This document shows, piece by piece, positions 14,790 through 56,200 of a stretch of 64,000 nucleotides of DNA. Position 1 is the stretch's first letter. Each line of letters opens with the position of its first letter. The translations under genes and the position numbers were made by a program. The notes beneath the pieces are model-generated. The model had not been told where the DNA came from. It did not search any database and saw nothing but the letters and a program-made list of their open reading frames with translations. Origin of the DNA: Moniliella sp. 'wahieum' (Eukaryota); NCBI GenBank assembly GCA_003971905.1, contig RSEE01000020.1:186001-250000 (forward strand), given 5' to 3'.

Positions 14790-16780
14790 GATGAATGGCG
14801 GCCTTGGGATCGAGCTCGAGTGGTGGTGGGCTCGAACCCGCCCAGCCAACAAAAGCCAGGCTGATATACGACACCAATTCAAACAGCATCACGTGAAAGT
14901 GCAACCCTACCATGTAATGTACCGGCTCCCATAGAAGCGGTTGAATCACAGATCACCGGAGGGGGGGGTGAGCAACCCTATGTGGCAAAACCACCCCATC
15001 CCTCTTGTGCTCTTAACTAAACACCTCTCCATACCTCCTGTCGCTCTGAGTGCCTGGTTCGATGCTCAGGACTAATAGTCCAGAATGTGGCTTGTGAAGT
15101 TCACGGGGGAACGCATTCAATAATGAAGTGTTTTGGTTTGGAAGAGTCGACAAAAATAGTAGCCTCATCGAAAACAGAGAGAGAGAAGAAATGCACCGTT
15201 TGATTTTTGTTATAGTCGGTACGTTCAACGTGCGCTGCATGTACAATCAAGCATGGGGCGTCCCATGCCGGCACGTTCCACCCAGTGTATCGCATTTGAG
15301 GTACCACCGCTTTACCTTTGCCGGGAAGAGGGCATCTTACAAAGAAATCATGCGATTTGCAGAACTTTTAAAACAGAGACCACCGGGGCAAAGAACCCCA
15401 GGCCCCGGCGCCTATAGTACTAGGCTCGCTCATCTGTAGTGTGCTACAGGCTCGTTTTCTAATGCAACCAGGAAGGGATGATATGTGTATTATGGTTAGG
15501 TCAGACTGGACTCTCTGGCTCCTGTCATTCCCTTCCAAAGCGAATACAGAGCCCCAATGGATAGGAATGAAAGTATTATAGGATCAGGAGACTTGTGCAC
15601 GATACGAAAACCCATCAACACCACTATTACCTTTTACCATCCCCAACCTTTTTGCCTTCTGGAGTATGCCTTTCCTCACGTTCACTTCTGTATGTACGGT
15701 GCGTATGGATGGAACAGTGTGGAGCGCGCTCACTCGTGTTTCTTGAGGTGTGGGTGTTGGGCCACACCCCTATCCTGTTCTTGCACCTGAATTAAGAGTC
15801 CTTTTTCTTCCGTCATTGGGGCTTAGTTGTTTACTCATATCCATGATATGGTTGTGTCAACAAGCATGAATCGAGCCCCCTACTTGGCGGTGTTGGGGAA
15901 GTTATGTGCCTCAACGTGATTTTGGTCATGGTAAGCACGTGCCTGCATCGAAACGGTCCATTGGGCAGTAGCAATTGTGGACCTTGTCCATGACCGTCAA
16001 GCAGTGCCCTCTCATATATCTTCTATACCTGAGAGTACATATGGACAGAGAGTTGTGAGCGGTATGCCTCCAGTGCGCTGGCTGCTTCACTTCTGTCTTC
16101 AACGGTCTACCATCCGTGGCATGCTCTCCGGTATAGGAAAACGATTTGTAACTGCAGGCATTCTCCTCATAGAAATACTGCGCTGTGTATATGCCCAGGC
16201 CTCCCCGGACGCTTTACAAGACGCACACACCAAACCTGGGCGGGCATCCGTTTTCTCTCCCTCTCCCTCCCCTGATTGATTTCGGCCATGATATATGATA
16301 ATTGATTGTTCTCCCCGTAGTTACTCTATTCGTCCCAATCTCCCGTCTGTTTCATAGGTTTTTTATGTTGCGCTACACCGTGTGCAAAACCACAGTACCT
16401 CTGCAGCTGCGTGTTTTGCTTCTTCGTGGCACAGACTCTTCCGTGTGGTGGCTGCAGGGAGGAGCGACCAGAAGCTGCGGGTGCAATGAGCAGAACCGAG
16501 GTTACGAGTGGAGGGGAGAGCAGATTGGCGGAGAGGAGACAGGAGGCAGCCGCGGAGGAAGGGAGGACAGGACGTGCGCAGCGCAGTTTACCTGTGTGCA
16601 CACAGGTTCTGTGCTTTTGGGCCACACCAGCAGGCTAGGAACGTGCCCGTCGCTCACCCCCCAGGGGACTGACGCAAAACGGTACACTGCTCCTGCGCCA
16701 GTATGTGATATGGTCAGTACCCGCATGTGTCACCAATCACCGATTACGCTTACAGCTTACGCTCACAGGCTAGATTAGCA

Positions 16781-16944
16781 TCATGCATCATGCATCATGC
16801 GTCGTATCGGCAGCACATCCCACAGAGCCGTGCTCTGCCGCGCCTCGGCATTCAGGTGCTCAGGTGTTCAGGCACGGTTATCGTCCCCGCTCCAAGCTTC
16901 AAGCCTCAAGCTCTCAAGCCTCAAGCTTCAAGAGCTTCAAGCTT
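16781..16944. repeat. Heptamer-period tandem arrays (TCATGCA)n and (TCAAGCY)n upstream of the asparaginase gene
   Basis: tcatgcatcatgcatcatgc at 16781-16800; ccaagcttcaagcctcaagctctcaagcctcaagcttcaagagcttcaagctt at 16892-16944. Confidence 0.85.
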
Positions 16945-17082
16945 TTCGGCTTCACCGGTCACCCCACCCCATCACCACATTTCCACCCCCATCTCCACCA
17001 CCACGCTACGGTCACTACGGGCATCGATACTGGGGCGCACGTCTGAGCTATGTTGATCACTAAATCGCCTCCACCCTCCCTA

Positions 17083-18663: not shown

Positions 18664-19398
18664 AAATACTACACATCTACGCCGCTATCACATGGCGGTG
18701 TATCTGTCGGTGTGGCCATGGGTATACATTTTGCTATGCGTTGCTCGATGTTACACAATGCCGGTATGATCGGTCTCTTTTGCATTGTCGACAGCCGCGT
18801 TCGAGACTGTGTCGTACTGTTGTTCATGTAGACAAGCAGATGGGCATCATGCGGATCACGAGTATGATGGAGGGCGGTAAGGCGTGAGGGGAAACAAAAC
18901 GAGAGCGTGAGATTTAAACGGGCTGTTGGGGTATAGCTCACTGGAATACTGCTATGCGGTGCTGTGCTGTTCTATCTCGCTGCTTCGACTGTTATGCAGA
19001 GACGGTAGATGGACATAGCATGAGCGTGAACATGTTGCTGCTGCTGAATTGGTGAGCGGCTTAGGAGACGATGAAAGCCAAACGGAATGGCAGGGGAGTA
19101 GGCGCCATCTCCTCCAGCAAACGGCGAATGCGAGGGCCTGCGGTGCACACCGCGTTTCGTCATGCAATATGCACGGCCACTCAGTAGGAGACCATTGAAA
19201 CTGTCTGCAGGCCTAGTCGCGTCGATCACCGTTCGCGGTTACCGGCCACGGTCACTCGTCCTTGCCATTGTCGCCTGCTGTCACGTACATCATGCATCAG
19301 TGCTAGTTTCATTGGCTGGGGCTGGACCAAGTGACGCAAGCCACAACTATGAGGTTTTGAGCAGCTGCCACCATCTCCGGCATCGCTACGTCTCGCTG

Positions 19399-21154: not shown

Positions 21155-21349
21155 CACAGCTCACCCAGGGTCATATTCTGCACCTTTCTTATATACTTCT
21201 ACGTCCAATGCGAGGACGCCCAACCCGAATGCAGAGGAAGTCGTAGGCCGAGAATTCGCATGGTTCGGGTTCGCTACTAACAGGAGGGGAGCGGGAGGGG
21301 GCAAGGACCTTGCGGCAGTGAACAGAGGATGGTTGGAAACATACTAGGC

Positions 21350-23684
21350 TTAGAGCTTAGATTTGCAGCAGGCTGCCTCCGCGTTGGCCCGAACCGAGGC
21401 AGGGTCGTCGGTTGGACGAATGTCCATTGCCGGGTTGCGAGGGAAAAAGAAGCTGGGCTTGAAGTAGAACGACACTTCATCCGATGGCATGACGGGGAAG
21501 CTGGAGGACAAGAAGCATGCAGGTCAGAAAGATGAACAAGCAACGAGATAAGGGATGTGGAGAACTCACTCTTCTGCCCGGGGCAAGTGAGTGATGCCGG
21601 TAGTGAAGAAGAGGACGATGTCCTTGTTACGAATGGATTCCGTGCCATCGCCCACCCAAGCCTCGACCGTGTCTGCGGGAGTCTTGGTGGTCTGCACCAC
21701 GTGTTTGCCGGCAGGGTACAAGCGACCTTCTCGTAGGGCACCGTCCAGAGTGCATGCTTTGCAAACGGAGCGCGGGTCGCGACGAGACTGTCGTGGTGAG
21801 CAAGAAGCTTGGGCTGCTGAGGGATCACCAGCTTGAATCCCACCGGCTTGTTGTTGGCGTAGTGCTTTTTGTTCTCATTGACAATCACCCAGCCACGCTC
21901 TGAGTCGGCATCGGCATCACGCACCCCATCGCCCGTCGTCTCAAACGTGGTCTGAGGGGCAATGTAGGCGTTGCCAGCCCAGTTGCGCGGGTGACCCGTG
22001 GGGTAGGGTGACGACTCGACGTGTTGTTCCACCACACTGTTAAGTGGGCCGTCGATGTGAGGGTCGATGCGGACGCTTAAATGTGGATATGGGGTTAGCC
22101 ACTGAAAATAATGTATGGAAAGAGGTGCGTACCTGAACAGATGCTGGTGGTACTGGGCGTTGATACGGGGTGCCACTTCATTACCATATGTAGTAGTCTC
22201 CCGGGGCCGAGAGGCGAAAGATTAAGAATGCCCGTAAGGTTAAGCTTGCAACCCCATGTGCCATCGAGGAAGAACTCCCACGAAGCCTGAAAAAAAACAA
22301 TGGTTAGCAGGGAAGACTCACGGAGCATTGACCTCGTGTGGAGGAGCAAATTGAAGGCCTTACCTTGTATTCGTAGTTCGCCACAGTGTAGACCGAAGAG
22401 ATGACGAGCTTGCGTTGACGCACAGTCGCCCGCAAGCCGTTAGGACGGAAGTCGGCATGGGTCCAGGCAGTGCCAGCGTCCTCATGGATGCAAATTGCGT
22501 TTTGGACTGTACGCACCGAGCCGTCGTGCTGCACAAGGTGGCCATCCATGTACTCGATGCTACCCAGGCAGTCACATCCCAGCGAAAGTGAGTTGGACAA
22601 CATTCCCAGCCCATATTCGCCAACATCGAATGCAAACTTCTTGTACCACGGTAATCAGGGTGGGAGTATGGAACAACCATTTCCGCCAAAGAGGCCCGGT
22701 AGAACAAAGGCCGCTCTTCGGGTTCTTGAGGCTGGCGCCTGGGGCTTCCGAATCCTTGTAAGAAATCGTCGAAAGCACAATCCCCTCTCGCGGATGGAAG
22801 CCAACGTGGATCTTCCACTTCTGCCATTCCAAAATGTTGCCCGTGCGGACGAAGGATACACCTTCGGGTTGTACGACCTGCAGGGGTTTCAGTCATCACG
22901 GAACCCGTTGGGGGCCGAGCCATCCGGCGTCTGGACCATCTTGGGGTGCCACTCGTGCTTTTTGCGTGGGGGGCCGTAACGGGGACGCAAGGCCGGGTCC
23001 GGCTTGGTAAACCCAGGGGGAGGAGGGGCACTGGTGGCGGAGGTCGAGAGCTCACGGGGGCCCTTGCGTACGCATAGGAGGGTAGTCAATCGCCAGAACC
23101 TCGCCAGTGTTACTGTCCAAGACAGGGCAAAGTCAAGCGGGTGGGCGTAGTGGTTGTCGTCCGGGCTGCCAAAGCGTGCGTAACAGTAGGCTTCTTGCAA
23201 ACGGCGGCCGGGGAAGCGCGTGTCCCAACCGACCAGCCATCGGCATACAATTGATGGGGCTCAACGCCAATCTCCTTGAGTGCCTCAATTACCTTAGGCG
23301 ACTTGCGAAGGTTGTCCTCCGCTACCTCAAGCTCTTGGACGGTGATTGCGGGTTGCACACCTTCAGGGAGAAGGATGACATCGACCACGGTCGGTTGAGG
23401 TGCCGATGGGGAAGAGTGACGTACAACTCGTACGCACGACCACCAACAGCATCAATCACGCACCTCCACCTGACGTTCAATCTTGGTCTTTGGCCTCTCC
23501 GCTGGACCGCCGGGCCAACGGATGTGTTCGATCACGGCGTTCTTCTCAGGCTCCTTGAGATAGACGTTGGTGATCTTGAACGCCTTGAGGCCCAGCTTCT
23601 CAACAGCATGGGTCTTGACGACAGCACCAGCAGCCGCAATCTCCTCAGGTGTGGGCGGATCAAGCGGTGGAAGGGGAGCGACAT
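21350..23684 (-). CDS. Peroxisomal copper-containing amine oxidase
   Basis: LDPPTPEEI start region; EWQKWKIHVGFHPREG; RASLAEMVVPY; catalytic AFDVGEYGLG; SLGCDCLG; TPQ consensus TVANYEY; Cu ligands YHQHLF; C-terminus AACCKSKL* (PTS1; TAA 21350-21352). Several introns and frameshifts. Confidence 0.93.
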
Positions 23685-24759
23685 AATGGCGCACTGAGCA
23701 GAGGGTGTGGTGGGGGGTGGGTTGATGGTGAAAACAGCGCAGTATAAGACGGCACCAGCAGGGGCACTTAAATAGAGTGCTTGCGGAGCCAACTCTATAT
23801 GGAAGAAGTGCACCCGCGGCCTGTTCTGGTTTGCCTGTCTCCTTCAAAACCCAAACGGACCCGTGCACAGATACTGACTGATAGATATCCCCAATCATTA
23901 ACCAGGGTGTGGTTCAGGCACCACAGAGCACACAGCCGCCATCTCAGGTCACAGAGAGCAAGTCCGTTCACAACAGAAGAAACCAAAGCCGACTGGTCCA
24001 AAGGAGCCACCACTGTAGGGCAGCGCGCAGAGCAGGCCAAGTCCGATGGAGCTGCCTCTGTCAGCGATCAGGCTGATCACAACCAGCACGGCTTATCGAT
24101 ATCAATATCAGCTCCCACCAGTATTCAATGCCCAGCGCCCATCCAGCACCACGCAACCCTAGCTGGCCTGGCGCCACTGAGCAACCCACTGACGCCGTGC
24201 TGGGGAGCGCGCTTAGGCGCTTGGGGCCAATCAATTTAATTGTTAGTCTAAGCGCGCTTACACGGGCCTGCTGCTGCTTAATGCTTAGGGACGTGCACTG
24301 GGCCTGCGCCCGTTGCACCCTGCCTCAGGCCAGGCCTCATGCATCCATGATATATGATACCCCGCGTCACGCGTCAAGCTTCAAATTTCAAACTTGAACT
24401 TGAGATGCTCTGGCGATGACGGTGTCATACGTCGTCTCGCGTCGCATATCATCCTGACATGTGATAAGAAGATGCCGTGGATCAATTGTGGTTTTCGAAG
24501 TCAGTACTGAGACTTAGTATTCAGTACACAGTACTTGTGCTCAGTACTCAGTTCTAGTCAGTGGGCAGCCGTGTACTGGGCTGTACAGTGGCTGTACCCG
24601 CACGCCTCCAGCCTGCTCTCACCGCCAGCACCAACTGTCGCGTGCGCCCCCCAATCCCCCTCTTAAAGCAGTCCCACTTCCACCCACTGCCCACCCCAAC
24701 GCCAACAACCCACCGTCTCTTCTTCGCCACCCACACCTACATTCGCATCACATCCGACC
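23685..24759. promoter_or_regulatory. Divergent promoter region shared by amine oxidase and formaldehyde dehydrogenase
   Basis: Head-to-head gene orientation; GATAAG/CTTATC elements at ~24091 and ~24463; heptamer arrays at 24367-24403 and 24501-24553. Confidence 0.6.
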
Positions 24760-25988
24760 ATGTCGACCACCGCTGGCAAGCCCATCCAATGCACCGCCGC
24801 CATTACCTGGGGTCCTGGTGAGGACGCCAAGATTGAGCAAATCACTGTTGACCCGCCGAAGGCGGACGAGGTCCGGGTCAAGGTCGAATACACCGGTGTC
24901 TGCGAAACCGACCGCTTTGGCGGCTCCGGTAAAGACCCAGAAGGTGTCTTCCCTGTTGTTCTGGGCCACGAGGGCGCTGGGATTGTCGAGTCGGTAGGCG
25001 AGAACGTGGATAATGTCAAGGTGGGTGACCATGTCATTCTTCTGTACACAGCCGAGTGCCGCAAGTGCAAGTTTTGTCTTTCGGGTAAAACAAACCTGTG
25101 CCAGGCAGTGCGGGCGACCCAGGGCCAAGGCCTGATGCCCGATCGTACTGTGCGCTTCCACGCTCAAGGTATGTTGACACCTCCCTCTCCATTTTTTGCC
25201 GCTTTACCTTAGGTACCTGGAGTGCTGATTTTTCTATGCCTGCTTTGCCAGGCAAGGACATTTTCCACTTTATGGGCTGCAGTGCCTTTAGCCAATACAC
25301 AGTCGTAAGCAAATACTCGCTTGTGGCTGTCGACCCCAAGGCGCCGATGGACAAGATCTGCCTTTTGGGATGCGGTGTCACGACCGGCTGGGGCGCTGCG
25401 GTGAAGACGGCTAAGGTTGAGGACGGCAGCACGGTTGCCGTATTTGGGATCGGATGCGTCGGCCTGGGTGTGATTGATGGGGCCGTGCACCAAAAAGCCG
25501 GGCGGATCATTGCCGTGGACATCAACCCCAAGAAAGAGGCCTGGGCCAAGAAGTTTGGTGCGACCGACTTTGTCAACTCGGCTGCCCTACCCCAAGGCAA
25601 GTCGATCACCGACTACTTGGTCGAACTCACTGACGGTGGGCTCGACTACACATTTGACTGCACGGGTAACGTAAATGTGATGCGGGCTGCGCTCGAGGCC
25701 TGCCACAAGGGCTGGGGTGTGAGCACCATCATTGGTGTGGCAGCAGCCGGGCAAGAAATCAGCACGCGCCCTTTTCAACTTGTCACAGGTCGCAAGTGGC
25801 AAGGCAGTGCCTTTGGTGGTGTCAAGGGACGTACCGAGCTTCCAGGCATGGTTGAGAAGTACCTCAACGGCACATTCAAGTTGGACGAGTACATTACCGA
25901 TTCGACCAGCATTGACAACATCAACGAGTCATTCAAGATCATGACTGGGGGCGAGGCCATCCGCTGTGTGGTGACGATGCACAAATAA
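24760..25988 (+). CDS. SFA1: S-(hydroxymethyl)glutathione dehydrogenase / class III alcohol dehydrogenase (formaldehyde dehydrogenase)
   Basis: [102 protein letters not shown]. Intron 25169-25251; frame intact. Confidence 0.93.
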
Positions 25989-26321
25989 GCCTTTGCTAGT
26001 GCCTTGCACACTTCTCTTCTGTCGCTAGCATTGCACTCATACCATTCCTTTTTGCTTATTGTAGGACTCCCCTCCCATAAGTTCCAAAACTTAGAACCTG
26101 GATAAATCTCACTGTCAGTGTTCTTTTCATCATTCGCCAAGGGGAGGTATTAATCAACGAAATATCAACAGAATAGCAGGCGAGAATAAATGCCAACGAT
26201 ACTTCGTCTTCTCTCACTCGGCTCGCCCTCCTATCATGTGTGTTGCGTAATGGAAGTATGTAGTTGAAAGGGTCCGAAAAGGGGGAGGATGCAGCAAATG
26301 TTATTCATTGGATTGGAAGAA

Positions 26322-30260: not shown

Positions 30261-33200
30261 TTGTCGCGGAGAATGGGAGTGGAAACTCCCTTGTTGGTGT
30301 CAAAAGAGGGTGGGGGGGGGGGGAGTGGGGGAGGGGAAGGTGCGCAGGGGAGATGGATGGGGAGAAGGGAAGAGAGAGAAAGTGGCGGCAGGACACGATC
30401 GCTGTGATCGCTGATCGTGATGGCGTGCATCATTAATCATTCCTGATGTGGGAATGGTGCTCGCAGCGTCTCGTGCTGCCTCTGTCCTGGTTGGTTGTCG
30501 CAGATTGCATTCCAGCTCCGGAAAAGGCCAGGGCACTCAAGGGGCCACCACGGCGGCCCAGAGACAGAGCAAGACAGAAACCCTAACATACCCCCCTTTC
30601 CCAGGCAGATGCTCGCGGACAGGGCCCATATCCTTGCTAGGCGATGAGCCGCTGAGCGGCGGAGCGCTGACGCATGACGCGGGTGCCTGAGTCGGCAGCG
30701 ATCAATGATGCAATTGCGTGGTGCCTGAGCAAGAGCGCGCTGATCGCGCCGATCAGCTGCCAGAACGGAGAGGCAGGAGTGCAGTGCCACATGCAAGTGG
30801 CACCCTGTCCATGTCTATGTCTGACAGGCGCAGTCCCAACCCAGACGGCATGCAGCGCATTGCACAGCAAAGTGCTTCGGCTGCAGCTGGGCGTGCAGCG
30901 GCACGCGCTCTGCCGACGTCTTTCCCCGCTGGCTTGGTAGCGGCAGCGCTTGGCCGAACGGCACCACGCCACACTGGCCCGAAGCTGGTCGCTGATCCTC
31001 CGCCCTCGCTGCACGGGGTTGCACATTGGCTGCCCTGAGGCTTTTGGCCTGTGGCTTGAGGGCCTGAGGCTGCCGGTAGGCAGCGGTGTGTCTGTTCGGG
31101 ACCTGCATGGGACTTGCGGACTTGCATGGCACCTGGCAGATCCATGCCGCGCCAGCGTGTCCAGGGTCCAGCAGGGCACAGCCAAGCAGGACTGCATCGT
31201 CCAAGCGCTGTTTCCCCACACTGTACGCTCCGCCGCCCCGGCACCTCCCCACACAGGCGAGAACTGAGCGCAGGAGGGTTAATGCGCTAAGGGTTACACG
31301 TCAACCACTGGACGCTGCCATCTCGATAGCTATTACAGTAGAGGTGACTTGGAGTTACATGGGCATCGCACCCATCCCTTGCCGGGACTGGCAATATAGT
31401 ACGTTTTTCCATGCTGATCCAACATGCCTGGTGATACATGTTGCTGAGCTGGGCGCTGGGCGCTGGAGCCCAATGGGATCTGAGATCTCACTGAGATCTG
31501 AGTTCTGATAGTCGATAGAGCTTAGAGGCTCTCTTGCGAAATGCTCTGACATGCTCTCCTCTTTTGGTCGCTGGCTGGACCGAACGTTGGCCACATCCGA
31601 GATCTGACCTGCACATCGGCTATTTTATTCTGCGCACCACACCTCCCACAGAGAGCCTCAGCCTCTCTGGTTGTGGCCATTGCTGAGAGAGACTCAGCGC
31701 TTGGTAGAAATGTGTATAGATGCTGGTCGATTATCGTCGCGTCGATGAAGCTTGAAGCTTGAAGCATCAGACCGTTCATTGATTATTGTTTGTGTGCCTT
31801 TTTGGTGCCCCCAACACACAAGACATGTGGCTATTGATGGTTAACATGACTGTGTGGTTGCGTGGTACCATTAATACTGTTTTGACTTTGAATATTGTTT
31901 TTGTCAGCGCGTAAGCAGATCTGACAATCACATTCCTTCCACACTCTGTTATCCGACTCTCCCTTATGTTCTGCCCCTGACGGGCTCCTCTTCTGGAATA
32001 GATTAACCATCATCTGCTCCCTTGCATAGTTTTGTTCGTACACCAACTTCAGAAGCTTGAGGCACAGCTTAAGATCAACTATATTGCATTACTCATGTGC
32101 CAGAGCTCAAACCCAGCAATCAGTCAATGTTACTGATATGTGCTTTGAGAAGTAACTTAACGTGCGTGTTGAGCCAGTTGGCAAGACACAATGTTGGTCT
32201 AGGGAGCCGGACGGGCAGAAGGAGATGAGAAGGTGATGGATTATCGATTAGAGCCAAAGTTGGGTCTGGATACAGAGGCATCGATCCAGGAGGCCCGACT
32301 AGGCACAGGGCCAGTGAGTCAACAGGAGAGAGTGCAGGGCACAGGGACAGTGACAAGCTGGGACACCAGCGTGGAAGCCGATGGAACCAAGACGAACCTG
32401 GTCTACCGACTGGGAGCCGGAGGATCACATTCATCACAGACAGTCAATACACAATCGAAAATACCCCAGATTTTTAAAAGGATCCGATGCTTCTCCACAT
32501 GCACTCTCTTCTACGGGCTTAGCGGATCTAAGGCCGGCTCTTCCTAACATGGCGTTCTTCTGACAGTTCTTTACTGTATATGCCGGGGCCTCAGGTCGCA
32601 GAGGATGGGTGCGTAACGCGTAATTTCTAATGGTTGTATGATTTCGTTGCCACCACAAAGCTGGCCCGCCATAAAAGACTTCTCGGTACAGTTCGTAGTC
32701 ACAGTTTATATATGCCGACTTCTTGGCAGTCAGTATACTGTCATCGCCCCCCTCATGCCAGTCCTCATGGCTCACATGCCTATCAACACACCGACGCTCA
32801 CTTGTGTCCACAACCGGACTCCACCCGGATCGGAAAGCAAAGGAGCCAGAGAGGTTCGGAGCTTCTCGCGACACCATTGGCGTCCTGATTGGATGGGCAC
32901 GAGCCAACCGAGCTGTATAACAGAAGAGTATTTCATGCCGGATGAGCAAGCGGCTGGTATAGCTTCTTTATTCCTTTTATCTGGAGTGTTGCAAATGCTA
33001 TTAGTACACAGCGCTGTCGTGAGGTCGATTACAGGGAGAGCAATAGGCCCCACGAGTATTATGATCTATCGACCAGATACTTGCCGTGGTAGGATTTGAT
33101 CACTTAACGGTGTATATCAGATCGCGGTTTCGTGGGTAGATGTACATGCGATAGAAGCATAGACTTGTGAGATACATGACAACCAAACCGAAACGTAGAG

Positions 33201-33281
33201 GAATGGCCGGGTAGAATGGGGGTGCCACGAGAATGGAAACAGGAGGGGATGGGATGGGGGTCAAGAGCAGAGAAAAAAACA

Positions 33282-34966: not shown

Positions 34967-37816
34967 GGTGTGTTGGCCGGGGGATGCAAGTTGGAAGTGC
35001 CGAGAGGGCTGCAATATGTGTGTAGGTCACGCCGCTGGCCGTGGGTGCGGGTGGAGCACGTGGTGGTGGTGAGGACGATGGGAGATTGAGAGGGAGAGGG
35101 CAGCGGTTGTTGCTCGCTGGGCACGCCACCTGGGCGGAGGGTCTGGGGGGAGTGGACAGGGGGGCTGATTAGGATACTGTGCTGCATGCTATACAGGGGC
35201 ATTGTGGTTACCGGCGGCTACCGGTGGGATCTGAGACCAATCAACGTTGCCCGGATCTTCTTCCGCTATCTAAGATCTAATCGCAGCCTGACAGGCAGAC
35301 AGACGTCACACTGGCGCCATGCGGTACACGTGACCATTCCTTGATTCCCTCCTCGTGGCAAACTGGGTTCCATCTGGGATCTCACATGCGCATGATCGAT
35401 GTCGATGACATCCCAGCCACGGTCGAATCGGGCGAAGAGTGCCCCCCGTGCGGCGCTCAGGCCCTCCGGTTGAGCCGTGTCGTGTATCATGTCATCGATC
35501 TCATCGATCATTCATCATGCGTCTGCCTCAGGACCTCGTGCTCACGCCTCCACGTGGCCGATGTGCGTCCTCTGCTGATGGTGAAACCGATAACGTGTAG
35601 TAACGCGAACGCGTATAACGCGTAGCCGCCGCCTGACTGTGGCCGACGCGACAAATCAATATAGCAATCACTGCACACTCCCGCCATCGCCGCTCCACGC
35701 CCCTCTGTTCTCCAACATCAATCATGACGTCATCAATCATATTGGGCGAATGGCAATGACCGGACAGCATATATTTGCACACGCTCCACATCATAGACAG
35801 AGAGGCGTTTTCACCTTTATAAACAGCCTGTGTTGTCCTTCAGCTGTGTTTCGTCTAACACGACCTTAATGCTCAACTTGAAGTATGAGCAAATCAACCG
35901 GGGGCCGTGTTCAGGCAAAGCAGGTTCATCATCATCAACCTCATCGGCCTCATTCATCATCATTAATCATTGCCAGATTATCCCGCGGTTACTATATAGC
36001 TTTCCTGCCCATTCTGGCTGTGAGTGAGAGGTTTGTGCTATAGTGACCGTGGGCAGACCAATGGAGAGAGCTCAGTTAAAATACTAGGATCTGAGGCCTG
36101 ATGGGGAAAGCAAAAGGACGGACCTTTTGGCCCAAAACGCACGAGGAATGTTACGGGCCGCGTCGGATCCAAGATGGTCTGATCCTAGCTAAGGCCCGCC
36201 TGCTCTGCACCAACCCAGTGGAGCGCGCCCCCAAGCCCAACCAAGTTTGACGATGGTTGGTTGTACCCTGTACGTGGTCCGAGTTGCCATGCGTACGCGC
36301 GACAGTAGTCGCTCCCGCCCAAGTCCAAGTCGGTGGTCAAAACGAGACCACCAAGTATTCAGTATCTTTGCGACGTCCGTCGCCCGTCACCACTTATTTT
36401 CCTTTCTCGATCGCGCCTGCGGCGATCAACCCCTCTTTTGACGTGCCTTTCTTTCTACACCCCTTTGTGTCTGTTTCCCCTTTTTCGATTAAGCCTGTAC
36501 CCCCGGTGGGTGGGGGATCTTTTCCTCCACCCTCCATTTCGTCCCTTTCCCGCCTATCCTGTCCGACTCCTGCCCGTTTCCAGCCAATTGATCCAGTACA
36601 GGCAGCTCTTCTTGTTAGCGTCCGACTTCTCCTCCGACCTCGTCCTCCAGCCCCTCGTCAACCCCATCGCGCGAGCCCTCCTTTGGCCGCGGCGATTCCC
36701 AGTCTCAGTTAAGGCAGTGTTTGTCCGCCGCTGCCTCCTCCCGTCCCTAAGTCCCGGAGGCTTCAGACACGTTACTACGGCCCAAGCCGGTGCAGACGCA
36801 GCCTTGCCACACGTGCAGCCGCCCCACCAAAGGCCTCTCCTCGTCCCTAGCTCCGCTCGGATACACCAACCAGCCCAAGCCCGAAACTACCGTGAGTCGT
36901 CCTTCCGTCTCCTAAGGGATTGTACCCCAAGAACCTGGGTGAGCCCCCTGGCGGGGCCCGCCCGTGACAAGGAAAGCGCGTGAAACGGGCCGTATATTTA
37001 GGGCCTACTACTGAAAGTGATGGGGAAAGTTGCGGTGGCAATGGGGTGATGGGTTCCTTCCATTGCTGGGATGCATTTCTCTCTCCCAAGCGGGGAGACC
37101 GAGGGCAGAGACTGAGGTGACAAGGGGCAAATTTCGAAATGATCAAGACTCGTCTCCACAACGGTGCACAATGCGAGTAGCAAGTCTACAGATGTTCAAC
37201 AAACCCACCTTGTTTAAGTATTGGAGGCCACCGCTTGCAACCAGTTTCTCGTCCAGCTACTAACCCAGAAAAAAGGCTTACAGTCCACGGCTGTGACCCC
37301 GGGTGACAAGCGCCGCCAGTCTTGGGCTACTTAGGTTTTGACTATGGTCAGATCTTTGACGTTTTGCCCACTGCGCCCCAACCTATTCATCTGTGATTTG
37401 CTTTGCTGCCTCCTTAGAGAAGGCTGGCAGGCCTCGTAAAGGGCGGGGAGCAGATGGATCCTTCAGATACTGACCTGGCCACTGGGGTAACGGCCGAGAT
37501 CTCCGGCACGCAATCGGGTTAGAGCGCTGTTACGGTTCACATATCAGTATTAGGGAACATATACTCTTGGTACGTGGCAGTACGAGAGTCGAGACGTCCG
37601 ACATATCAACTCTGGATAATCTCCTTTTATGACAGAGAAAGAGGAAGACAAGCAGTTAGAAACCCCCAATTCACCATCGTACAGCTTTTGAGTAGAGCCG
37701 AAATACTACCCTTTCAGGAAGTGGCATTTTTTCAGGCCAACACTCCCTCTGATAGGATCCCGAAGAGATAACAGTATAAAACGATCAGAGAAGTCCTAAG
37801 CATTGACCTCCCACGT

Positions 37817-38012
37817 TGTCAGAATCACACTGTGCTAGGGGGCCCTTGCCCACTAGGCCCGTATGGGCACTATGGCGTGATTCCTATCAGTTGGGAGATC
37901 CTGTGTCCACCTCTCGACTGTGCCCCCTTCCTGAGGAGGTCATATACCTCCTCTGCGTCCATAGATGTATGCAATCCATCTGCACCCTTTCCCCCATCTC
38001 CGTCTCCTGACA
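37817..38012. mobile_element. Solo LTR (196 bp)
   Basis: Begins TGTCAG, ends CTGACA (6-bp terminal inverted repeat, TG...CA). Flanked by identical 5-bp CACGT (37812-37816 and 38013-38017), a target-site duplication. Confidence 0.75.
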
Positions 38013-38108
38013 CACGTCGTCTCATTGGGGTCCGTCGAGACTCCGTACATATGAAATTGCGTTCAGACAGGCTGTTCTAGCCGGGTTCTGCCCTTCCTAT
38101 AATGATAC

Positions 38109-38752: not shown

Positions 38753-40959
38753 CAGTTTCTCGCCTTGTTTCTCGTCTCGGGTCCGCTTCACCCTTGACCC
38801 TCGCCTCCTCTCTTACCTTGTACCTCTTATGTTTGGTCCTCACTTCTTCCTTTTGGCTCATTTCCCCTTTTCACTGTAATAGACCAGTTGGTCTTTCCTT
38901 TGCCCCCCCCCTTTCATCTTCTCTAAAGCCTCTCTGTCTGTTCTTATAGGGACTTTGGATCTGGAACGCGTTCAGTTCTCCGTGAGTCTTGTCTCCAATG
39001 GGTAGGGAAGGTCTCCGTCTGGGGATCCAGCAACCCCGTTACACTACTTTCTTTTCCTCCATTTCTCGCGTTTCCTGACACGCAACGGTTGAAACAGTTG
39101 TTGCCTTCACCTCTCTTTCAAACTTTGGCTAATCTCGCTCCCATTTTCAATTTCTTCGTCCCTACCGTCTCGCTCCTTCCCTGCTCTTTCGCTTCGCACC
39201 ATGCCCTCTGCTCTTGCTTCCTCCCCACGAACGATTGCTACATCCCTTTGCCTAGTCTCGACTCTGGTTTCCCTCGCATTTTACCCCGACTGTGACACTC
39301 TCGGTGCTCATTCTTCCCACACATACGTCGCCAAAACCCGAAGTCAGGTTTCAAGCTATATAGGTTCAAGCTGCCCGTGCCCCTGTCGCTTTCTATTTGT
39401 TGTCTGGTTGGTATTCATCCCTATATCTACACTCAGTGATTTCCATTCAGCATTTACGGAAGTTATACCACGGACAAAGAAAAGCTATGCGCCTACTAAT
39501 ATATCAGAAGGCCTATCAGGCTCTTGCATACACCCGGTGGATGCTTGCTGGTGCCAACCCAATAAGAGATCAGTTCGATCAGTGGAGCTGCTAGCAGGTC
39601 GGGACCCTCTGGCTCCCTCCTCCGTTCGCTTCCAACCCGAATGCAGTGCGAGCGTGGATACGAATGAGCGTGGGAGACACGGTGAGCGATCGACGGACAA
39701 GGATCGACGTCGTCACGTCCTTGTCTTTTTGCCATGGAAGTTTCAGTACTTCAGTAGTCAATACTTCGATGGCCTCGATGGTCACCGGTGAGTGGTGAGC
39801 CGCTGATCGATGATCGTGATCGACGATCCTGGTTTGGCCAGTTGCCCCGTTTGGACGATGGAGGCGATGCGATCAACAGATGAGGTGGCTTCGAAAGGCT
39901 ACACTGGCTGAGTCTAAACGCGCAAGTGCTACGTGTTAAGTCCTAGTTACCATCATGCATCAACGGTATAATCCTCAAGGTACTCAGTACGTTCAACGTT
40001 CAGTTGAGTACCGAGTATTTCCTGCAAGAGGTATGGGTATGTGTCCATCACCTGGGTTTGATGCATGTGATGGTTCCGAGATGGATTGCAGTTGCGCACA
40101 GACGTGTCGGAGTCGGGGGAAGACAAGGAGAACCAAATACCCAAGGGCGCAAATGGAGGGCAAACATGCCTAGAAAGGGAATGACAGGAAGATTGCCAGA
40201 TTACCTCGATTACCTAAGAGCCTATGGCACACCCTTTTTGTATTCCCGAGGCACTAGGCCCTCGTGGTTCTAGACCGATCTCAAAGTGCATTGCCGGTTG
40301 GGAGATGGATGGAATAACCCTAGCACGGAGCGCGCGCGCACACCGTTTGGCCCTACATACTGCTGCTACTGTCGTCCGCGAGCTCTTTTTTTGGCGGCGA
40401 GGCGCAGACAGCAAGGGGGCAGTGCAGCGACAGCGCAAGGCACAGGCAGAGCACAGACAGAGCACAGGCTCTCTGGGCTCGGGCGGCGCGAGAGCAACTG
40501 GCCTGGTGCGGGTGGGTTGGGGCTGCGCAAGAGGGCGAGCGGCAGGCGAGGCGGGGCAGGAGGGCAGTGCCAGCAGATGATGGGGGGGTGGAATTCCGCT
40601 GCCCATTTGCAGGCGGCGGACAACAGTGGGCCCGGCCGGCGGCGGGCGGTGGACGCGACCAGTCAGCGATCTGCAAGCGGCGTGGACGGTGGGCGGCGCG
40701 GCGCCAGTGTGGGTGGGTGCTGAGCACGGCGGGAGCGTGGCTGACGGCGTGGTCCGACGGCCACTGCAGTGCTGCGGTGCTCGGCTGCTGCTGTGCTGCT
40801 GCTGCTGCTTTTCGCTGCCATTGGCTCCTCCCCGCCTCTCCGACCTCAGTCCGCTCAGCGTGCTTTGCCCATCGAAGCCCGAGCCTGCGTCTGAGCATCT
40901 GCGTCCAGCGAGCTGCCACGCCTTGCCGTTGCTCCCGCCTCTGCCTCCGCCTCGCCGCC

Positions 40960-45297: not shown

Positions 45298-46001
45298 GTC
45301 AAAAACAACCGATGGTGGTGATGGCTTTCGTTCGTCCACAGCCCGGCGCAACAGAAACAGAAAATTAAAAAGGGGAGGCCTCCAGGCCCCAAATCAGAAA
45401 TGTTGAACGTTTCGATGGCCTACTTCGACGTTCAAGCGATCGGTCATCGATCAAGCTAATTGATCACGCTTCAATTCAGTTTCAGGTGTGGTGTTCAAGC
45501 CGACCTACCAGTGAGGCCAATAATGAGTCGTACGACGAGTGCATGAGGCCCGAGGGCCTCAGGGGACATGCACTCAGCTCTCCTTATAGCTACCAGCGGT
45601 CGATAGCGTGGCCGTGTAGAGTAGAAACCCAGCGTTGGATTATCTAGCTCTACTCAACTAGCAGTCCAGTCTCTGGTGCGAACCACACGAGACGGTATCC
45701 ACGCAGCAGCAGAAAAGGCAAGCCAACGAGGTCCGTATATCATACGTGAATGAAACGAGGCTCGTATGGCACAGGGGATCATCAGAGGCACTGTTGCATA
45801 GCATGCAGATCAAGCGCACCACCATAGTAGTGTCGCAAAAGGAAACAATCGGGGTATGATGCGAAGGGAATCACAGGCAGGAAAACGTGATGAGCACAAA
45901 GTGAGGGAGGGGGGGGGTACGCAGCGGGAAGGGTATCCGCGAACCCACAAAATGTGTTCATAAAGCCTCGGAAGGAAAAATAAGGTAAGTGGAAAACAGG
46001 C

Positions 46002-49404: not shown

Positions 49405-50380
49405 GGTGGGAGGGGAGGAGGGGGCAGCGGAAATGTTGGCCCAAGCCAGCAGCCCTTTTCAGATGGAGGCTGGGAATAATTGGATGTGGGGTAGCAATGC
49501 GGGGCTGGGACTAGGGGAGGCTGGCATGAATGGCTGGCTGGCTTGCGTCTGTTTGCTTTGGCGCATTTCAGGCGGGGTCGCAGCGACGACGGGCCACGCG
49601 CGTGAAGCGTGAAGGGACATGCAGGTAGTAGGGCTTTAGTGCGGGCGCCAGACGAAGCTACGCGCCCACGTCTCTTTGCACCAGGCGGGCTGGACGGCTG
49701 CGCCATGGCTCCTCTGCGGTGCTCGTCAAGCGTCAAGCTTCAAGCCTCGGCCCGCCTCGGCCGCCTGTCGGTTCGCCCGAGCCTCAGGGAGAGGGCGCGC
49801 GCAGAGGAATTGCCAGCCACCCGTGAGCGCAACCGCGGCGGAATGGGCTCGTGGCGGAAGACATTATCTCTGCGTAGAGCTGAGCGAACCCTCAACGGTT
49901 CAACGTTCAACTTGAACGTTCAACCTGCTGAGCCACCGCCGAGACGAGACTTACTGATGTCATCGAGCTCATCGGTGAGGTTGGTGCTGGGTCGGCGGTG
50001 GATGGGTGATTTGATTAGGCCCTGAGTTCAACGTTCAGTACCAGTGGCGATTGGATCTCAATGTTCAATTTGAATGCTCGAGGTGCAGGTTGATGACGTC
50101 AGACGGATGAAGCTGGTGCCAAATAGAATCTAGCAACCAGCAGCTGGGCCAAGTAGGTAGCTAGTCTGCCAATCTCGGCTCTGGGACACTGCCCCTGTGC
50201 GGCCCACGACCGACCTGCGCGTGGCGTCAGATGCGGCTGGATCCGAGCGAGGGCAGTGGACCACGCTGCGGCTGCTGCGCCGTCGGTTTGGCACACCACC
50301 ACTCGTACGCAGCCTTGGCACCAGCTCGGGCCTCTCCCCCCCCCCCACCACCACCGCCTTCTCCCCTCCCCAACTCCTCA

Positions 50381-50934: not shown

Positions 50935-51556
50935 GTGCCTTTTGTACATGCTTTACAGCTCATGTATCTCATAGTGATGGCTGCCCACCCATGGGGCGAG
51001 CTTCCTGTGGCCATAACCCACTTGCATGAACGTGTATGCTTTGTAAGTGGTTACAGCATTGGCCTGAAGGTATCGCCAGTTTGGTGTGTTGCGTTCCACT
51101 TGGCGAGGAATTGCTCTGAGAGGTGGGAGGTAACAGGAATTGACGCCTGTGCTGGTCTAACGGCGGGTAGCATTATCCATCCTGAGGTCTGAGGTGAATG
51201 ATCACAAGTGGCTCTCACTCCCCTCGGCATCGCGCGACGTAAACGACCACTCAAAGAAGCAAAGCAAACTGCATAAGGAAGGACCAAGCTGCCAAGCGTC
51301 GGTTATGTAGTCCTTCTAGGCCGATCAACCACAAGTAGTGATGAAGCTGATGAAGGGATAGAAGAGAAGCCACTTATGACGGAGGGAGAGGTTAAAGTAT
51401 ACTACGTTGGTGACACGAAACACTGGCTGGGCTGATAATACAAGCGCATAGCATTGATGAGGTCATAGAGTGGTAGAGGGCAGGTAACGGAGATGAAAAC
51501 ATGAAGGTAGTATGCTGGTCGGAACGGGCAGATAACGAGCTGAAACCGGCTCACCA

Positions 51557-53207
51557 TCACCATTTGCCGACGCGGTTGCCATTTTTGGAGGCCACAACAT
51601 TAGCCTCGAGTTTGGCATGTTCCACCACCTCGTACGCCTTTCCAGGTACAATGTAGGCCAACGCCGTCTTGTTGGGTACCTTCTCCTTGCCGCCCTTGGC
51701 TGCTGCCACTGCCGCCTCGGCCTCAGCCACGGCCTGGCGTGTCGCCTGGGACATCCCATCAGCATCGGCTGCCTCGAGCGCCTTGCGCGCCTTGAGCTTG
51801 GCAATCTTGTCCTTGGCCATCTCATACCCTCCATCAATCACACCCACCCGCATGGTGGCAAGCAGGTTCTGTGCCGCATTCGAGTGATCGTAGATTCCGC
51901 CGCAGAAGGCAGTCGTGGCATCCTTACCGATCTTGGCCCTCACCAAGGCCCGGCCACCAGGGTGGCCGTCCATAAAGCCAGTCAGGTCATGCACAATCCC
52001 ACAGACCACCGTCAAGTCGCGCGTCTTGCTCTCCTCGACAAATTCGTCCCACGTCACAATGGGAAGCGACCTGATCTCTTTGGGGTACTGCAGCTTCTCC
52101 TGCTCTTGGTGCATCAAGACAAGTTGCATTTGCAGCCGACCCTTGCGGATCTCATTCTCGGGGAAAAACTTGAGGTCGTAGGCCAAACCGACGTAGGAGA
52201 GAAGGAAGATGAGCCACTTAGTAGGGTCGTAGTGGTACCAGCGGATGCCATTGCGCGTGTCGGCCGGGAATTGATGGTGGTAGTTGTGGTACCCCTCACC
52301 TACGGTGACCAGGGCGGTGATCCAATTGTCACGGGGCGAGTGCTTGTTGTCATACGTCGCATCCCCAAGCCAGTGAGCGAGCGAGTTGATGCAGAAGGTG
52401 GCATGGTGAACAATCACAAGACGAACCATCCCGCTGTAGAAGAAGCCGCCGCGCCAGTCTCCCCATCCCAAGCCGGCCACCAGCGTGGGTACACCCAGCC
52501 CCATGAACAGGATCAGGGGGACGTAATGCCTGTGCTGGAACTGCACCACCGGGTTCCGACGCAAATCCGACACATCGGCACTGCCAATCGGACGACGCGG
52601 CTTGATCAGCATCCAGCCCATGTGAGCAAAGAGAACCCGCGGGCAGCCGAGTAGGGATCAAGGTCCGTGTCGGTGTAGCGGTGGTGAGCGCGGTGGCCCC
52701 GGGACCACCAATGGATGGATCCCTCCATCGCACTCGATCCAGCCAGCATAAACACATACTCCAATGGCCGTTTGGCCGAGTAGGAACGGTGCGCCCAGAG
52801 ACGATGGTAGCCCGCTGTGACACCAAGACCTGACCACAAATAGTAGATGAAGGTCCAGATTGCAGTCTTGAGCTGCAACTGGGTGGTGCAGATACCGTAC
52901 ACGGCCATGAGAGGTGTGACGGTCAAGATGGTAAACGAAATCCACTGCAGTTCTTGGAGGATGTTCTTCCACTCAAACGGGGGAAGTGCAGGTGGTTTGT
53001 TGAGTGCTTGTTGAATGTAGTTATCCTCAATCTCTTGCCGGTGGACCTCATCTTGGGGAGCAGGGACCATGCCCTTGTTCCCTTGCTGGACCTTGGCCTC
53101 ATAGGAAGACAGGGGCGAGAAGTCGGTCTCGTCAGCGGAGGTGGGAGGGTGGTGACCCCGTGCCTTTGGCGCAGCTGGGGCGCGAAAGAAACTTCCGAGT
53201 GGGCCAT
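51557..53207 (-). CDS. OLE1: Delta-9 fatty acid desaturase with C-terminal cytochrome b5
   Basis: His boxes GYHRLWAHRSY, HRAHHRYTDT and GEGYHNYHH; cytochrome b5 HPGG and HSNAA. Frameshifts near 52630 and 53100. Confidence 0.95.
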
Positions 53208-56200
53208 GGGAGGAGGGAAAGTAGGAGATGGAGGATGAAAAGACCCAAAAGGAAGGGGCAATAACTGATGAGTGGCATATATACTACACCGCGACCAACC
53301 TACCTCCTCATCGCATGAAGTTGTGTACTTGAGGCCGGACATGCAGTGTCCCCGAGCTTCAAGCGTCACGCGTCACTATTCAATCTTGACCGATCCCACA
53401 CAGAACAGGTGCGTCGAGGCAGGGGCAGGGACAGACGGACACCAAAGGGGGATGCGGTCTGCCATGGGAAGCTAGGGAAGACGGCAGGCACGGCGCGTAT
53501 CCAGGCGGCGCTTCTAGTTACTAGGACCGTTTCGTTTGGGTGGGGAGGACCCGGCAGGAGGTGCGCAGGTGTGTGGCAGCACGGCTGAGCGCGGACATGG
53601 CACCACCCTAGCGTGTTTGCCGGGCGCGGAGGAGGCTGAGCTGAGTGTACTGAGTCCCACGCACCGAGGGCGGAGAGGGGCGGAGTTGTGAGGGCACGCT
53701 ATGGGCTGGACGGCTGGGAGGCGCGAGAGGCTGCCAGGAAGGGAAGCCGACGGCCGAGGCAGCACCAGGACCAGCGTCCGCCGCCTTCTGCAGCCCGACC
53801 CTCCGAAGCCCGACCCTCCGAGGCCCCGAGCCCGACAGCCCGCCCGCCCGAGAGGCCGAGCAACCGGGGCCGTATATTGATAGGCTCCCCAGCTACGGGT
53901 GAGGTCACCGGCCACAGTTATGTTGCAGCGACACACTGGTGCAGCGCCTGCCGCACTTCATTTCCACGATGCCAATTTCACCGCTCACCCACCACTGATC
54001 ACCCCTCAAGATCGGTCCATTCTGCCGCATCGCTTCACCCCTGCGTTTCCACCTTGGCTCTTCTTGCCTGTGGCGCACCACAGAGGTCGGTTCCGTCCAC
54101 CGACACGTGTAACGTGTAACACTGGTCCCAACCTCCTGCCGTCCATCTGCTGCCCAATCCGAACACTGCGTTCGCTGTAAGTTTGGGTTCCTATACGAGA
54201 GCCCAACCTTATAGCATTCTAGCAGCATTCTATTGTAGGCTGATATATTGATACGGTATAGTCGCAGTATTGAGAGTACCATGGGAGTGGCACAGGGCAC
54301 AAACCCGAAACATAAACCAGTAATATATCTCCAAACTTTAACTACGAGAGGAGCTTGGACCAGCACCTAGTAAACGCCTATATATGTGTTGGCTACCAGT
54401 CGTAGAGATTGGCAGAGCCCCCGTCACGCGTCAGGCTTCAGTGACTACAGTGACTGGCACGCGTAACCCGCGCGACACTTGAGTGTATTGGGCCAGTGCA
54501 TTCCAGAGTCCCTCCATGGGCTTCCGCCCGGGTCGGAACGTATCACACCCCACAGGCTAGCTCTTCTTTTGCTCCACAATATCATTTCCGCTGCCTATAC
54601 TGCCAACACCACAACACTGAGCCAACTAAAAGCGTCACTTCGCTCCACGGAGGAGGGGTACGGTCGCGCATCACGCCGGCGTTTGGGGGTTGGAGTTCAC
54701 CGTTCTCCGTTCTCCCTAATTCACCTCCGCTCGGTGTCGATGAGTGGCATGTGGCAATGCGTAGGTATTGCGGGGAAGCACTTTATATATGACACACACA
54801 TTTCTTAACGCCACTTCATTGCATATGAAAATATTTGAGGAAATCGGGCTGGAAAACTTCCTCATTCAGGCATCTCTCCTGGATGAGAACGTGTGTGCCT
54901 AATACAATACCTGGAAGATGGGTACTGGCAGGCTCTGCATCCTCTATCTGTTGCATCTCATATCCATTTGCATGCATTTGTGATGTGAGAAAGAAACGAT
55001 CCGCTAAAAGGACGATCGATGACTGAGCAATAACCTCTGTGACATGTGAGGTGGGATGATCGATGAGAGATATGAGATCCAAATACGGTGCCTACATGTG
55101 ACGTCCGGAGGAGAGGGACAATTTGGCGGCGTTGTAGCTCCATGCATGCATGGTAAATCCAAAATAAATCCAAAAATGTCGAAACATCTCTTTTCTGCCA
55201 GTTTAAGATCGGCATGTTGGTCATTCACCTTGGTCCTAGTTCCAGGTTCATACTAACGTTCATACTGGATGACGCCTCCTCGAAATTGTGGTGATTCGTA
55301 TGCACCGCACACATGTCCGAGACGACCGTCGCCGATCGTCAAACCTTTTTAAGGCAGGTTTTCTTACTCTTCAACTCGAGAGACTGACCTCTGATATAGC
55401 TCTTCCACTTCTTCCCCCGTGGAGTGTCCCACTTTATCCATCACAACCTTAGTTGCACTCTCGCCTTGATAAACAATAACATTGGTAATGGTGTGTGGTG
55501 TTCACACATTGTCGATGATGAGGTCCAACACACCACCAAATGGCCCTCCTTTCTCCTCCAGCGAGACGCTGCTGTGCTTGATATTATAAAACGGATGGCG
55601 GGCACCGGAGGGTCCTGATCTCCTGGCGATTCCCATGGTTCCTTAAGGGTTGGCGCTAGCAAGCAGCACACGCAAGATGAGCGGGTCCGTTTAGGCGTAG
55701 CGTTTCTTTGTCCCAGCCTTAATGTCTGTCAATGATATGGATGCAATACAGAGAAGATATGCTGTCGATGATGAGATACCTCAAGTTGTCAGCACACCTC
55801 TAATGCCGTCGAACAAAATTCTTTATGTGCCCAAGCCAATAGCCTTCTCATCTTCCCACAGTCTCTTCGAATAGCCCTCGTAGCCGTGTTCCCCTGAATA
55901 TGTGGGGGTACGCCGATCTCCCTATAAGCTAGCTGGCGGTGCCTCCATTACATACTGGTCCCCGTATTCGGCATAAGAGACACGACGGATGGAGCCGCGG
56001 AGGGGGGTCGAGGTCTGAATCGACCGGGCGTGTGCGCCTTATATGATTATCATTCCCCTCCATTATTCTCGCAATGGTCGGTAATAATTATAGGACCACA
56101 AAAGGGGAGAGATGGTGTCATTCTTCCACTGTTGGTCGATCTCAACTGATCTTCCCCCCCCACATCAGGACCATCATCATGGAGAGAAGAAAACCAAAGG

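Follow-up and report, generated by a model that had tools for sequence, protein, structure and literature searches.

Heptamer-period arrays between the genes of Moniliella sp. 'wahieum' as probable excision footprints of a DNA transposon

What process writes short, evenly spaced palindromes into the non-coding DNA of a basidiomycete? The question is raised by a stretch of 64,000 nucleotides (nt) from Moniliella sp. 'wahieum' (contig RSEE01000020.1, here C20:186001-250000; hereafter the window), in which TCA or TGA recurs between genes in chains with a period of 7 bp, separated by 4-nt spacers that vary within a chain and are usually self-complementary. A preliminary description of these arrays offered two readings, a promoter grammar read by a dimeric or polymerising DNA-binding factor and the footprint of a template-switching mutational process. 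The assembly (GCA_003971905.1; 69.5 Mb in 223 contigs) also contains the second haplotype of the window (C22:388525-451600; identity 87–97%, about 94% overall). From the sequences of both alleles, other contigs and resident transposon copies, we conclude that the arrays are very probably footprints left by the excision of a cut-and-paste DNA transposon, which accumulated at the same sites and were in part extended by slippage.

The pattern itself is real. All 14 arrays quoted in the preliminary description were recovered letter for letter (the AGCT/AGCC run extends over 16892-16946), and both the 4-nt spacing and the palindromic spacers are enriched: with S standing for C or G, TSA-N4-TSA occurs 106 times in the window against 67.8 ± 8.7 in 30 local dinucleotide shuffles, and the 10-mers with a palindromic spacer occur 37 times against 3.7 ± 2.2, with no enrichment in the window at any other spacer length from 0 to 11. 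In 200 kb from seven other contigs, the palindromic form was found 191 times against 11.9 ± 3.4 (shuffles were used as controls, since both the arrays and ordinary repeats inflate counts on reversed sequences). The proposed word T[C/G]A held for TCA and TGA and failed in its restriction to a C or G centre, TAA and TTA being equally enriched (31 versus 3.0; 228 versus 17.8); the centre base is free, which makes TNA the true word. Pairs in direct orientation (TCA..TCA, TGA..TGA) exceed inverted ones by 203 to 25, and genome-wide counts of five-unit chains, with overlapping matches, reached 2,689 at period 7, 1,056 at period 6 and 146 at period 8. Among heptamer tandem repeats of at least 17 bases in 464 kb, 55 of 88 consist of one base plus a 6-bp palindrome, nearly all of the form A...T.

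The spacers obey an insertion rule: a site NN-TNA-xy gains the reverse complement of xy, written rc(xy), plus a second copy of five to seven of its own bases, never more. At three haplotype differences (32886, 49610 and 24546), the spacer of the new unit consists of two flanking bases and their reverse complement and is not a copy of the neighbouring spacer. Across 614 kb, the form TNA-xy-rc(xy)-TNA-xy was counted 308 times on one strand and 304 times on the other; shuffles gave 2 and 1, and CNG, GNC and ANT centres stayed close to their shuffled values. Other fungi, represented by 80 metagenome loci, hold 8 instances in 346 kb against 612 in 614 kb here, these loci being distant (48–61% identity) and many of them short. 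Of 206 isolated direct motifs, 102 have a period-7 match that continues for exactly two bases on one side (CNG and GNC controls, 4 of 48 and 5 of 55), and because slippage needs four matching bases in all where these motifs have two, half of the isolated motifs are too short to be duplications. The duplicated stretch spans 5, 6, 7, 8 or 9 bases in 611, 39, 53, 2 and 2 cases, respectively; the hard edge at seven implies that the target is a symmetric 7-mer, ab-TNA-xy, which shows little base preference beyond the T and the A. A transposon footprint is expected to retain a target-site duplication remnant of fixed maximal length, and here the remnant stops at 7, the length that the resident element described below duplicates; the expected filler, P nucleotides reverse-complementary to the end of the flank, is likewise what the two-base fold-back contains.

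Tallied at sites with a single explanation, the outcomes comprise 247 scars of +7 bp (rough expectation 3.4), 30 of +9 bp (0.2), 34 plain 7-bp duplications (1.7), 12 and 9 of the two +8 forms and one with P bases from both sides. Together, 560 fold centres in 387 clusters lie within the 614 kb, which extrapolates to about 60,000 scars in about 44,000 clusters across the assembly (both haplotypes) if this large-contig sample is typical. Several other origins were discarded. Targets of 3 bp (PIF-like) or 5 bp are ruled out by the 9-bp class, which restores two bases to the left of TNA; leftovers of a long terminal repeat (LTR) integrase are ruled out because the filler derives from the flank; and 2-nt (Spo11-like) or 4-nt (Top2-like) staggers and tyrosine-recombinase hairpins were dismissed by reasoning on the product.

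The rule acts on both sides of one site, which explains how different spacers come to stand within one array. Sixteen doublets combine two palindromic spacers of different sequence; the spacer on the left agrees with the left flank in 15 of them and the one on the right with the right flank in 12, where chance would give 1 in 16 for each side. The preliminary description was thus right that simple slippage does not explain mixed spacers; these are set by two neighbouring bases. Turnover between haplotypes agrees. Clean indels (near-identical, gap-free 12-base flanks; 176,821 aligned haplotype columns) number 41 at 7 bp, 15 at 6 bp and 16 at 8 bp. The rule fits 22 of the 41, nine of them not as tandem duplications, while 13 of the 41 fit neither the rule nor a duplication; among 9-bp indels, 5 of 13 fit the full 7-bp form and none of those five is a tandem duplication. 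New units of a slippage microsatellite should copy an adjacent unit, and these nine 7-bp and five 9-bp indels, a subset of all units, do not. Two haplotypes alone give no direction of change; the counts in standing DNA indicate insertion.

An element with exactly this target resides in the genome. It belongs to a low-copy family with ends CTCACTG..CAGTGAG, whose copies have terminal inverted repeats (TIRs) about 80 bp long as well as subterminal tandem repeats and stand between unrelated flanks. A search for the end pattern with an adjoining TNA required gave 40 matches, including five inward-facing pairs with identical flanking 7-mers: four copies of 4.9–5.0 kb (on C23, C29, C34 and C35) and one of 378 bp on C20, a miniature inverted-repeat transposable element at C20:546811-547188 inside a multi-copy repeat whose other copies are empty. 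When the end search was repeated with the TNA demand removed, 10 of 11 ends adjoined NN-TNA-NN, as did 18 of 19 in a flank-blind DNA search with the element end, TNA filling about 4% of positions; an exact 7-bp duplication flanks five of the six two-ended copies. The one exception among the 19 ends, on C8, carries two additional bases, identical both to rc(xy) and to the first two bases of the element. It is an allele of a TNA-flanked one-ended copy on C23 and its end lies directly beside an older scar; the two bases would be P nucleotides left by an abortive cut at one end, or else a consensus error.

The four long copies differ by 5–17 substitutions over 3.57 kb and their internal indels are all private to one copy, so the copies are young and the indels probably assembly noise. 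No intact transposase was found in them, as none has an open frame above 184 amino acids even by majority reading, and with no long frame common to them they look non-autonomous. Pfam returned no match at the curated cut-off for pieces of the long copies, and protein homologue searches with one element frame gave nothing or three repetitive junk matches. One frame was placed by Atlas (0.96) in a basidiomycete cluster named for DUF4218, with a recognition score below the reliable level, and serves as a lead only; separate frames contain what we take to be pieces resembling C(2)C and H motifs. A relative at 70% identity over one frame lies near C66:104462-106200. Scanning 913 kb for TIRs with duplications gave no 7-bp case, the family being too rare for a sample of that size. 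Genome searches with PF02992 gave two matches, neither with TIRs in the surrounding 9–10 kb, and tblastn of the coding part of the TIR family against the PF02992 genes showed no link. One match is a transposase-like gene at C17:556-559 kb (allelic to C62:281-284 kb, 93%), either an old remnant or a domesticated gene, with frames broken by introns or noise; the other is a remnant at C34:514.9-515.2 kb, 24% identical to the first and about 10 kb from a copy of the TIR family. The PIF/Harbinger domain PF13359 has no match in the genome; neither have hAT PF05699 and KDZ PF18758, for which the controls were equally silent.

Other alleles were sought for the six two-ended copies and found for four, of which one holds a scar, two are empty and one has an adjacent deletion. 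The C29 copy is flanked by the duplication GTTGATG, and its allele on C53 reads GT-TGA-TGCA-TGA-TG, which is the predicted +7 scar, exactly in register; in one case of the four, the footprint thus sits where the element is known to have been. The alleles of the C35 and C20 copies each contain a single 7-mer. The C11 copy stands between two different TNA-centred flanks and about 70 bp of its allele are absent, which is what transposition of one end into a nearby target should give. The C23 and C34 copies yielded no allele.

The following sequence of events would produce the scars. The element inserts at ab-TNA-xy with a 7-nt stagger, and those seven bases are duplicated, as its copies show. At excision, the transposase would seal the flanks as hairpins, a step suggested by the palindromes and by hAT, Transib and RAG chemistry; a host nuclease of Artemis/Pso2 type would open the hairpin two bases off its tip, leaving the two P nucleotides rc(xy); and end joining would keep this overhang and trim the other end mostly to T, perhaps through T-A microhomology (the outcomes are observed, the enzymes presumed). 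The main product would be abTNA-xy-rc(xy)-TNAxy (+7 bp), with the +9 and +8 products retaining more of the second copy. Each scar would then offer two TNA targets, so that later visits from either side could add units set by the left or the right flank; repeat visits would make mixed arrays, slippage would presumably make the long uniform runs, and selection would clear frameshifting scars out of genes.

Several observations weigh against this account. The filled/scar allele pair is a single one, and the C53 scar is possibly an independent visit to a hot site, given that the long copies differ by 5–17 substitutions per 3.57 kb when non-coding haplotype DNA differs by about 4%; a scar at a given site by chance, however, has by our estimate a probability of the order of 1%. 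With W standing for A or T, the element-adjacent bases are W-S in 16 of 18 TNA-flanked ends against 85 of 231 scars, a difference in bias from which it follows that other families or earlier preferences probably made many of the scars and that this family is probably one of several. No intact transposase was found, as described above. The ratio of about 60,000 scars to fewer than 20 element ends is very large, and the flank hairpins enter the model by inference.

The size of that ratio, together with the broader flank spectrum of scars than of element ends, would be natural if most scars were made, with no resident element involved, by a nuclease, derived from a transposase or not, that cuts NN-TNA-NN directly with a 7-nt stagger and hairpin-capped ends; a domesticated CACTA-type protein would be an example. 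The TIR-less PF02992 gene present on both haplotypes (C17/C62) would be a candidate, and the large haplotype insertions resolved in 177 kb all look LTR-like or unclassified, none with a 7-bp duplication. Such cutting would, however, need fill-in and then a second cleavage to yield a duplication plus a hairpin, where insertion and excision supply both by known chemistry; an element that uses just this target is present in the genome, and its scar is seen in one allele pair; and the approximately 30 rule-fitting indels in 177 kb, roughly one per few hundred substitutions, could by our estimate come from a few hopping copies. We consider element-free cutting an improbable source of most scars. 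Hairpin-assisted slippage or template switching during replication in quasi-palindromic heptamers is less probable still. Slippage surely adds units, as the long uniform runs and the 18 of 41 7-bp indels compatible with tandem duplication suggest, but as an origin it meets the half of isolated motifs too short for duplication, the excess of direct over inverted copies (the opposite of fold-back copying), the hard 7-bp limit and the match to the element; in addition, TNA units fold less stably than CNG/GNC units (−6.7 versus −8.8 kcal/mol), and yet only TNA is enriched. Of the mutational reading in the preliminary description, the footprint therefore stands and template switching does not, because the geometry fits hairpin nucleotides added to a duplicated 7-bp target, and the genome contains a transposon that makes such a duplication. 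A long-read consensus artefact would be conceivable in an assembly this noisy (7.6 kb of aligned coding sequence contain 39 frameshifting indels, consensus errors of 1–2 bp being frequent and gene-breaking; two frame changes in the window allele of a desaturase gene and at least four in its C22 allele), but errors would neither spare genes nor mimic the duplication of a transposon, and the other haplotype repeats 25 of the 44 window motifs letter for letter, which makes this explanation close to untenable.

The promoter grammar, in which selection would keep arrays bound by a factor at TSA-N4-TSA, was weighed by position and conservation. Over 17085-61507 of the window, with 13 gene bodies drawn by hand, no event falls within the 25.6 kb of gene bodies, whereas the 18.9 kb between genes hold 26, 19 of them in divergent spacers. 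The siting upstream of starts that the preliminary description saw proved not to be specific: 14 events lie in the 9.6 kb within 1 kb of a start and 12 in the 9.3 kb farther away, and per TNA site the rates are 19/549 in divergent, 6/251 in tandem and 1/90 in convergent spacers. The amine-oxidase-like and class III alcohol dehydrogenase promoters have paralogues on C6 and C34 that show no alignment to them yet carry arrays of their own, different ones, as regulatory arrays might. An array of transcription-factor sites should also be conserved above its neighbours, and this was not seen: 71 of 153 motif 10-mers are letter-identical in the other haplotype against 1,279 of 2,306 neighbours, and the T and A columns change at 3.7% against 4.0% in neighbours, with spacers changing more (8.4%). 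With spacers dictated by flanks, no extra conservation and no bias to starts, reading by a DNA-binding factor is unsupported, and as an origin the promoter grammar is largely refuted and now very unlikely; some arrays may be in secondary use.

How does the transposon reading compare with known systems, as the consulted parts of the cited papers present them? Flank hairpins and footprints are established for hAT, Transib, the MULE Muta1 and RAG (PMC5499845). The joints of hAT (Ac/Ds), Transib, Muta1 and RAG resemble the scars here in combining a target duplication with short palindromic P nucleotides in a few dominant products, and they arise by host hairpin opening and end joining, the steps we propose here (PMC5873905, PMC5499845); Muta1 excises precisely in >90% of events. 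Those footprints were described at reporter loci, whereas here they form tens of thousands of fixed genomic repeats. The palindromes of Ac/Ds centre on the complement of the element-adjacent base, whereas those here are even-centred at the junction and have two P bases, so that the hallmark expected of hAT is missing (PMC5873905). The hAT7 families of rust fungi also make 7-bp duplications in basidiomycetes (PMC12730594). TIRs with long subterminal tandem repeats are a feature that the element shares with the CMCT clade (CACTA/EnSpm, Plavaka, ESTA, Transib; PMC12730594; CNIRT6 and CNEST in PMC12810828), which mostly has CA..TG ends and 2–5 bp duplications (PMC12730594); CNEST duplicates TA (PMC12810828), and the footprints of Pack-CACTA are varied, with a duplication of 3 bp (PMC6379663). 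In its workings the element resembles a CMCT transposon, yet its ends are CT..AG and not CA..TG as in CACTA/EnSpm and its duplication is 7 bp in five of six two-ended copies, outside the 2–5 bp range (PMC12730594), and it is not filed as CACTA. Small intergenic '10-bp repeats' in Ustilago maydis have been suggested to be transposon footprints (PMC4081816, citing Laurie 2012); the possible likeness lies in scattered small intergenic repeats read as footprints and in a minimal motif that is also 10 bp here. The chemistry of hairpin excision is known (hAT, Transib, RAG); a search of the open-access literature, with most subscription papers outside it, gave no account of the rule, of an EnSpm element with 7-bp duplications, of so uniform a scar or of some 60,000 of them.

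Arrays built in this way would show that new tandem repeats can begin by a route other than slippage, one by which a single transposon clan left roughly 60,000 scars of one shape and dominates 7-bp length variation in non-coding DNA. For a basidiomycete, the scars would document naturally occurring outcomes of hairpin opening and end joining, and they would chart where transposition once struck non-coding DNA. They would also be indirect evidence for perfect, RAG-like flank hairpins of a CACTA-like element and, if the clade assignment holds, would extend the known duplication range of the CMCT clade. Motif finders would mistake scar words for promoter elements, and the older footprint suggestion for small repeats of smuts becomes testable by a simple rule. 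A bolder and rather doubtful possibility is that a CMCT-related lineage with CT..AG ends and a 7-bp NN-TNA-NN target acts as a self-feeding genome writer, each scar doubling the targets and attracting a further event, as the element end beside an older scar may illustrate, and many scars perhaps coming from abortive or element-free cleavage by the same or a domesticated transposase; a few elements would then have written the dominant class of heptamer microsatellite (the 55 of 88 longer heptamer repeats), and the 10-bp repeats of other smuts may share this kind of origin.

Individual sites in the window illustrate each part of the rule. The right flank predicts the spacer of the scar TGA-TATA-TGA with a decayed further unit (16289..16305; different in C22) and of TCA-TTAA-TCA (30430..30446), and the left flank that of the single scar TCA-TGCA-TCA (19290..19299; absent from C22), of TCA-CGCG-TCA with a GGCT unit (54424..54440) and of TGA-CATG-TGA and TGA-TCGA-TGA (55040..55066). 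Upstream of the class III alcohol dehydrogenase gene, a TGA-TATA-TGA scar accompanies a mixed CGCG/AGCT/AATT/AACT array (24348..24402) in which the first spacer follows the left flank and the third the right; the array is also present in C22. Haplotype comparison identified unit 24541-24552 of the TCA-GTAC array (24501..24552) as a haplotype insertion that fits the rule and is no tandem duplication; the same holds for an unscarred forward-strand TGA site (32884..32893) whose C22 allele gained TGA-TTAA, and the C22 allele of the forward-strand TGA-AGCG-TGA site (49603..49614) carries an additional unit (spacer AGCT) that follows from the rule, not from slippage. A 9-bp scar on the forward strand (51338..51360), absent from C22, shows the full 7-bp target duplicated around the 2-nt fold-back. 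Unit structure differs in C22 for the three-unit TCA-TGCA array (16781..16800). The TCA-AGCT/AGCC array of 7-, 8- and 9-bp units followed by the scar TCA-CCGG-TCA at 16952 (together 16892..16961) is 30 bp shorter there, and the TCA-AGCG-TCA-AGCT-TCA array (49726..49742) is also shorter. The TAA-GATC-TAA scar (35271..35280) is one unit longer in C22, from which the scar TCA-TTAA-TCA (35960..35969) is absent; the scars TCA-TGCA-TCA and TCA-ACGT-TCA (39953..40002) come from sequence and haplotype comparison together.

The remaining sites were read directly from the window: TGA-CATG-TGA with flanks that no longer match (24455..24464), the GATC-spacer array (31481..31508), the TGA-AGCT array (31746..31769), the W-centred scar TTA-TCGA-TTA, missed in the preliminary description (32241..32250), TAA-CGCG-TAA (32614..32623), TCGA units of 9 bp and 7 bp (35492..35517), TCA-CCGG-TGA with a TGA-TCGA array (39782..39828), the decayed array TCA-TCGA-TCA-AGCT (45444..45473), ACGT-spacer arrays and scars between divergent aldehyde dehydrogenase and cofilin-like genes (49892..50067), the mixed AGCG/CGCG/CTAT/ATCT array upstream of the desaturase gene (53359..53389) and three single scars with spacers TTAA, ACGT and GATC at 61907, 62079 and 62493 (61907..62502). 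Beside the GATC-spacer array, at 31448-31470 and 31513-31530, stand period-7 arrays with TGG or TAG in place of TNA, a weakly enriched class that perhaps represents mutated scars or off-consensus targets.

Pfam supports the names of the asparaginase, class III alcohol dehydrogenase, aldehyde dehydrogenase, desaturase and TPR genes in the window, and the cofilin-like gene was named from reading by eye. The best named match of the desaturase (51557-52621) is Tilletiaria anomala (61%), followed by other Ustilaginomycotina, which places the fungus among the basidiomycetes related to smuts. Given the gene-breaking consensus errors, labels such as 'decayed' for genes or elements of this genome call for caution. 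The divergent amine-oxidase-like and class III alcohol dehydrogenase genes (21277-25990) recur as a pair on C6 and C34 at 75–82%, with further single-gene copies on C117, C29, C112 and C194; it is an expanded amine/formaldehyde-handling pair. Haplotype-specific solo LTRs with TG..CA ends and 5-bp duplications occupy 36150-36969 and 37821-38012 of the window and also L055:3326-3535; the majority of the large haplotype insertions that could be resolved belong to this type. At 16643-16713 lies a non-coding segment of which 33–70 bp are repeated at several unrelated places (C45, C20:508 kb, C93 and C17).

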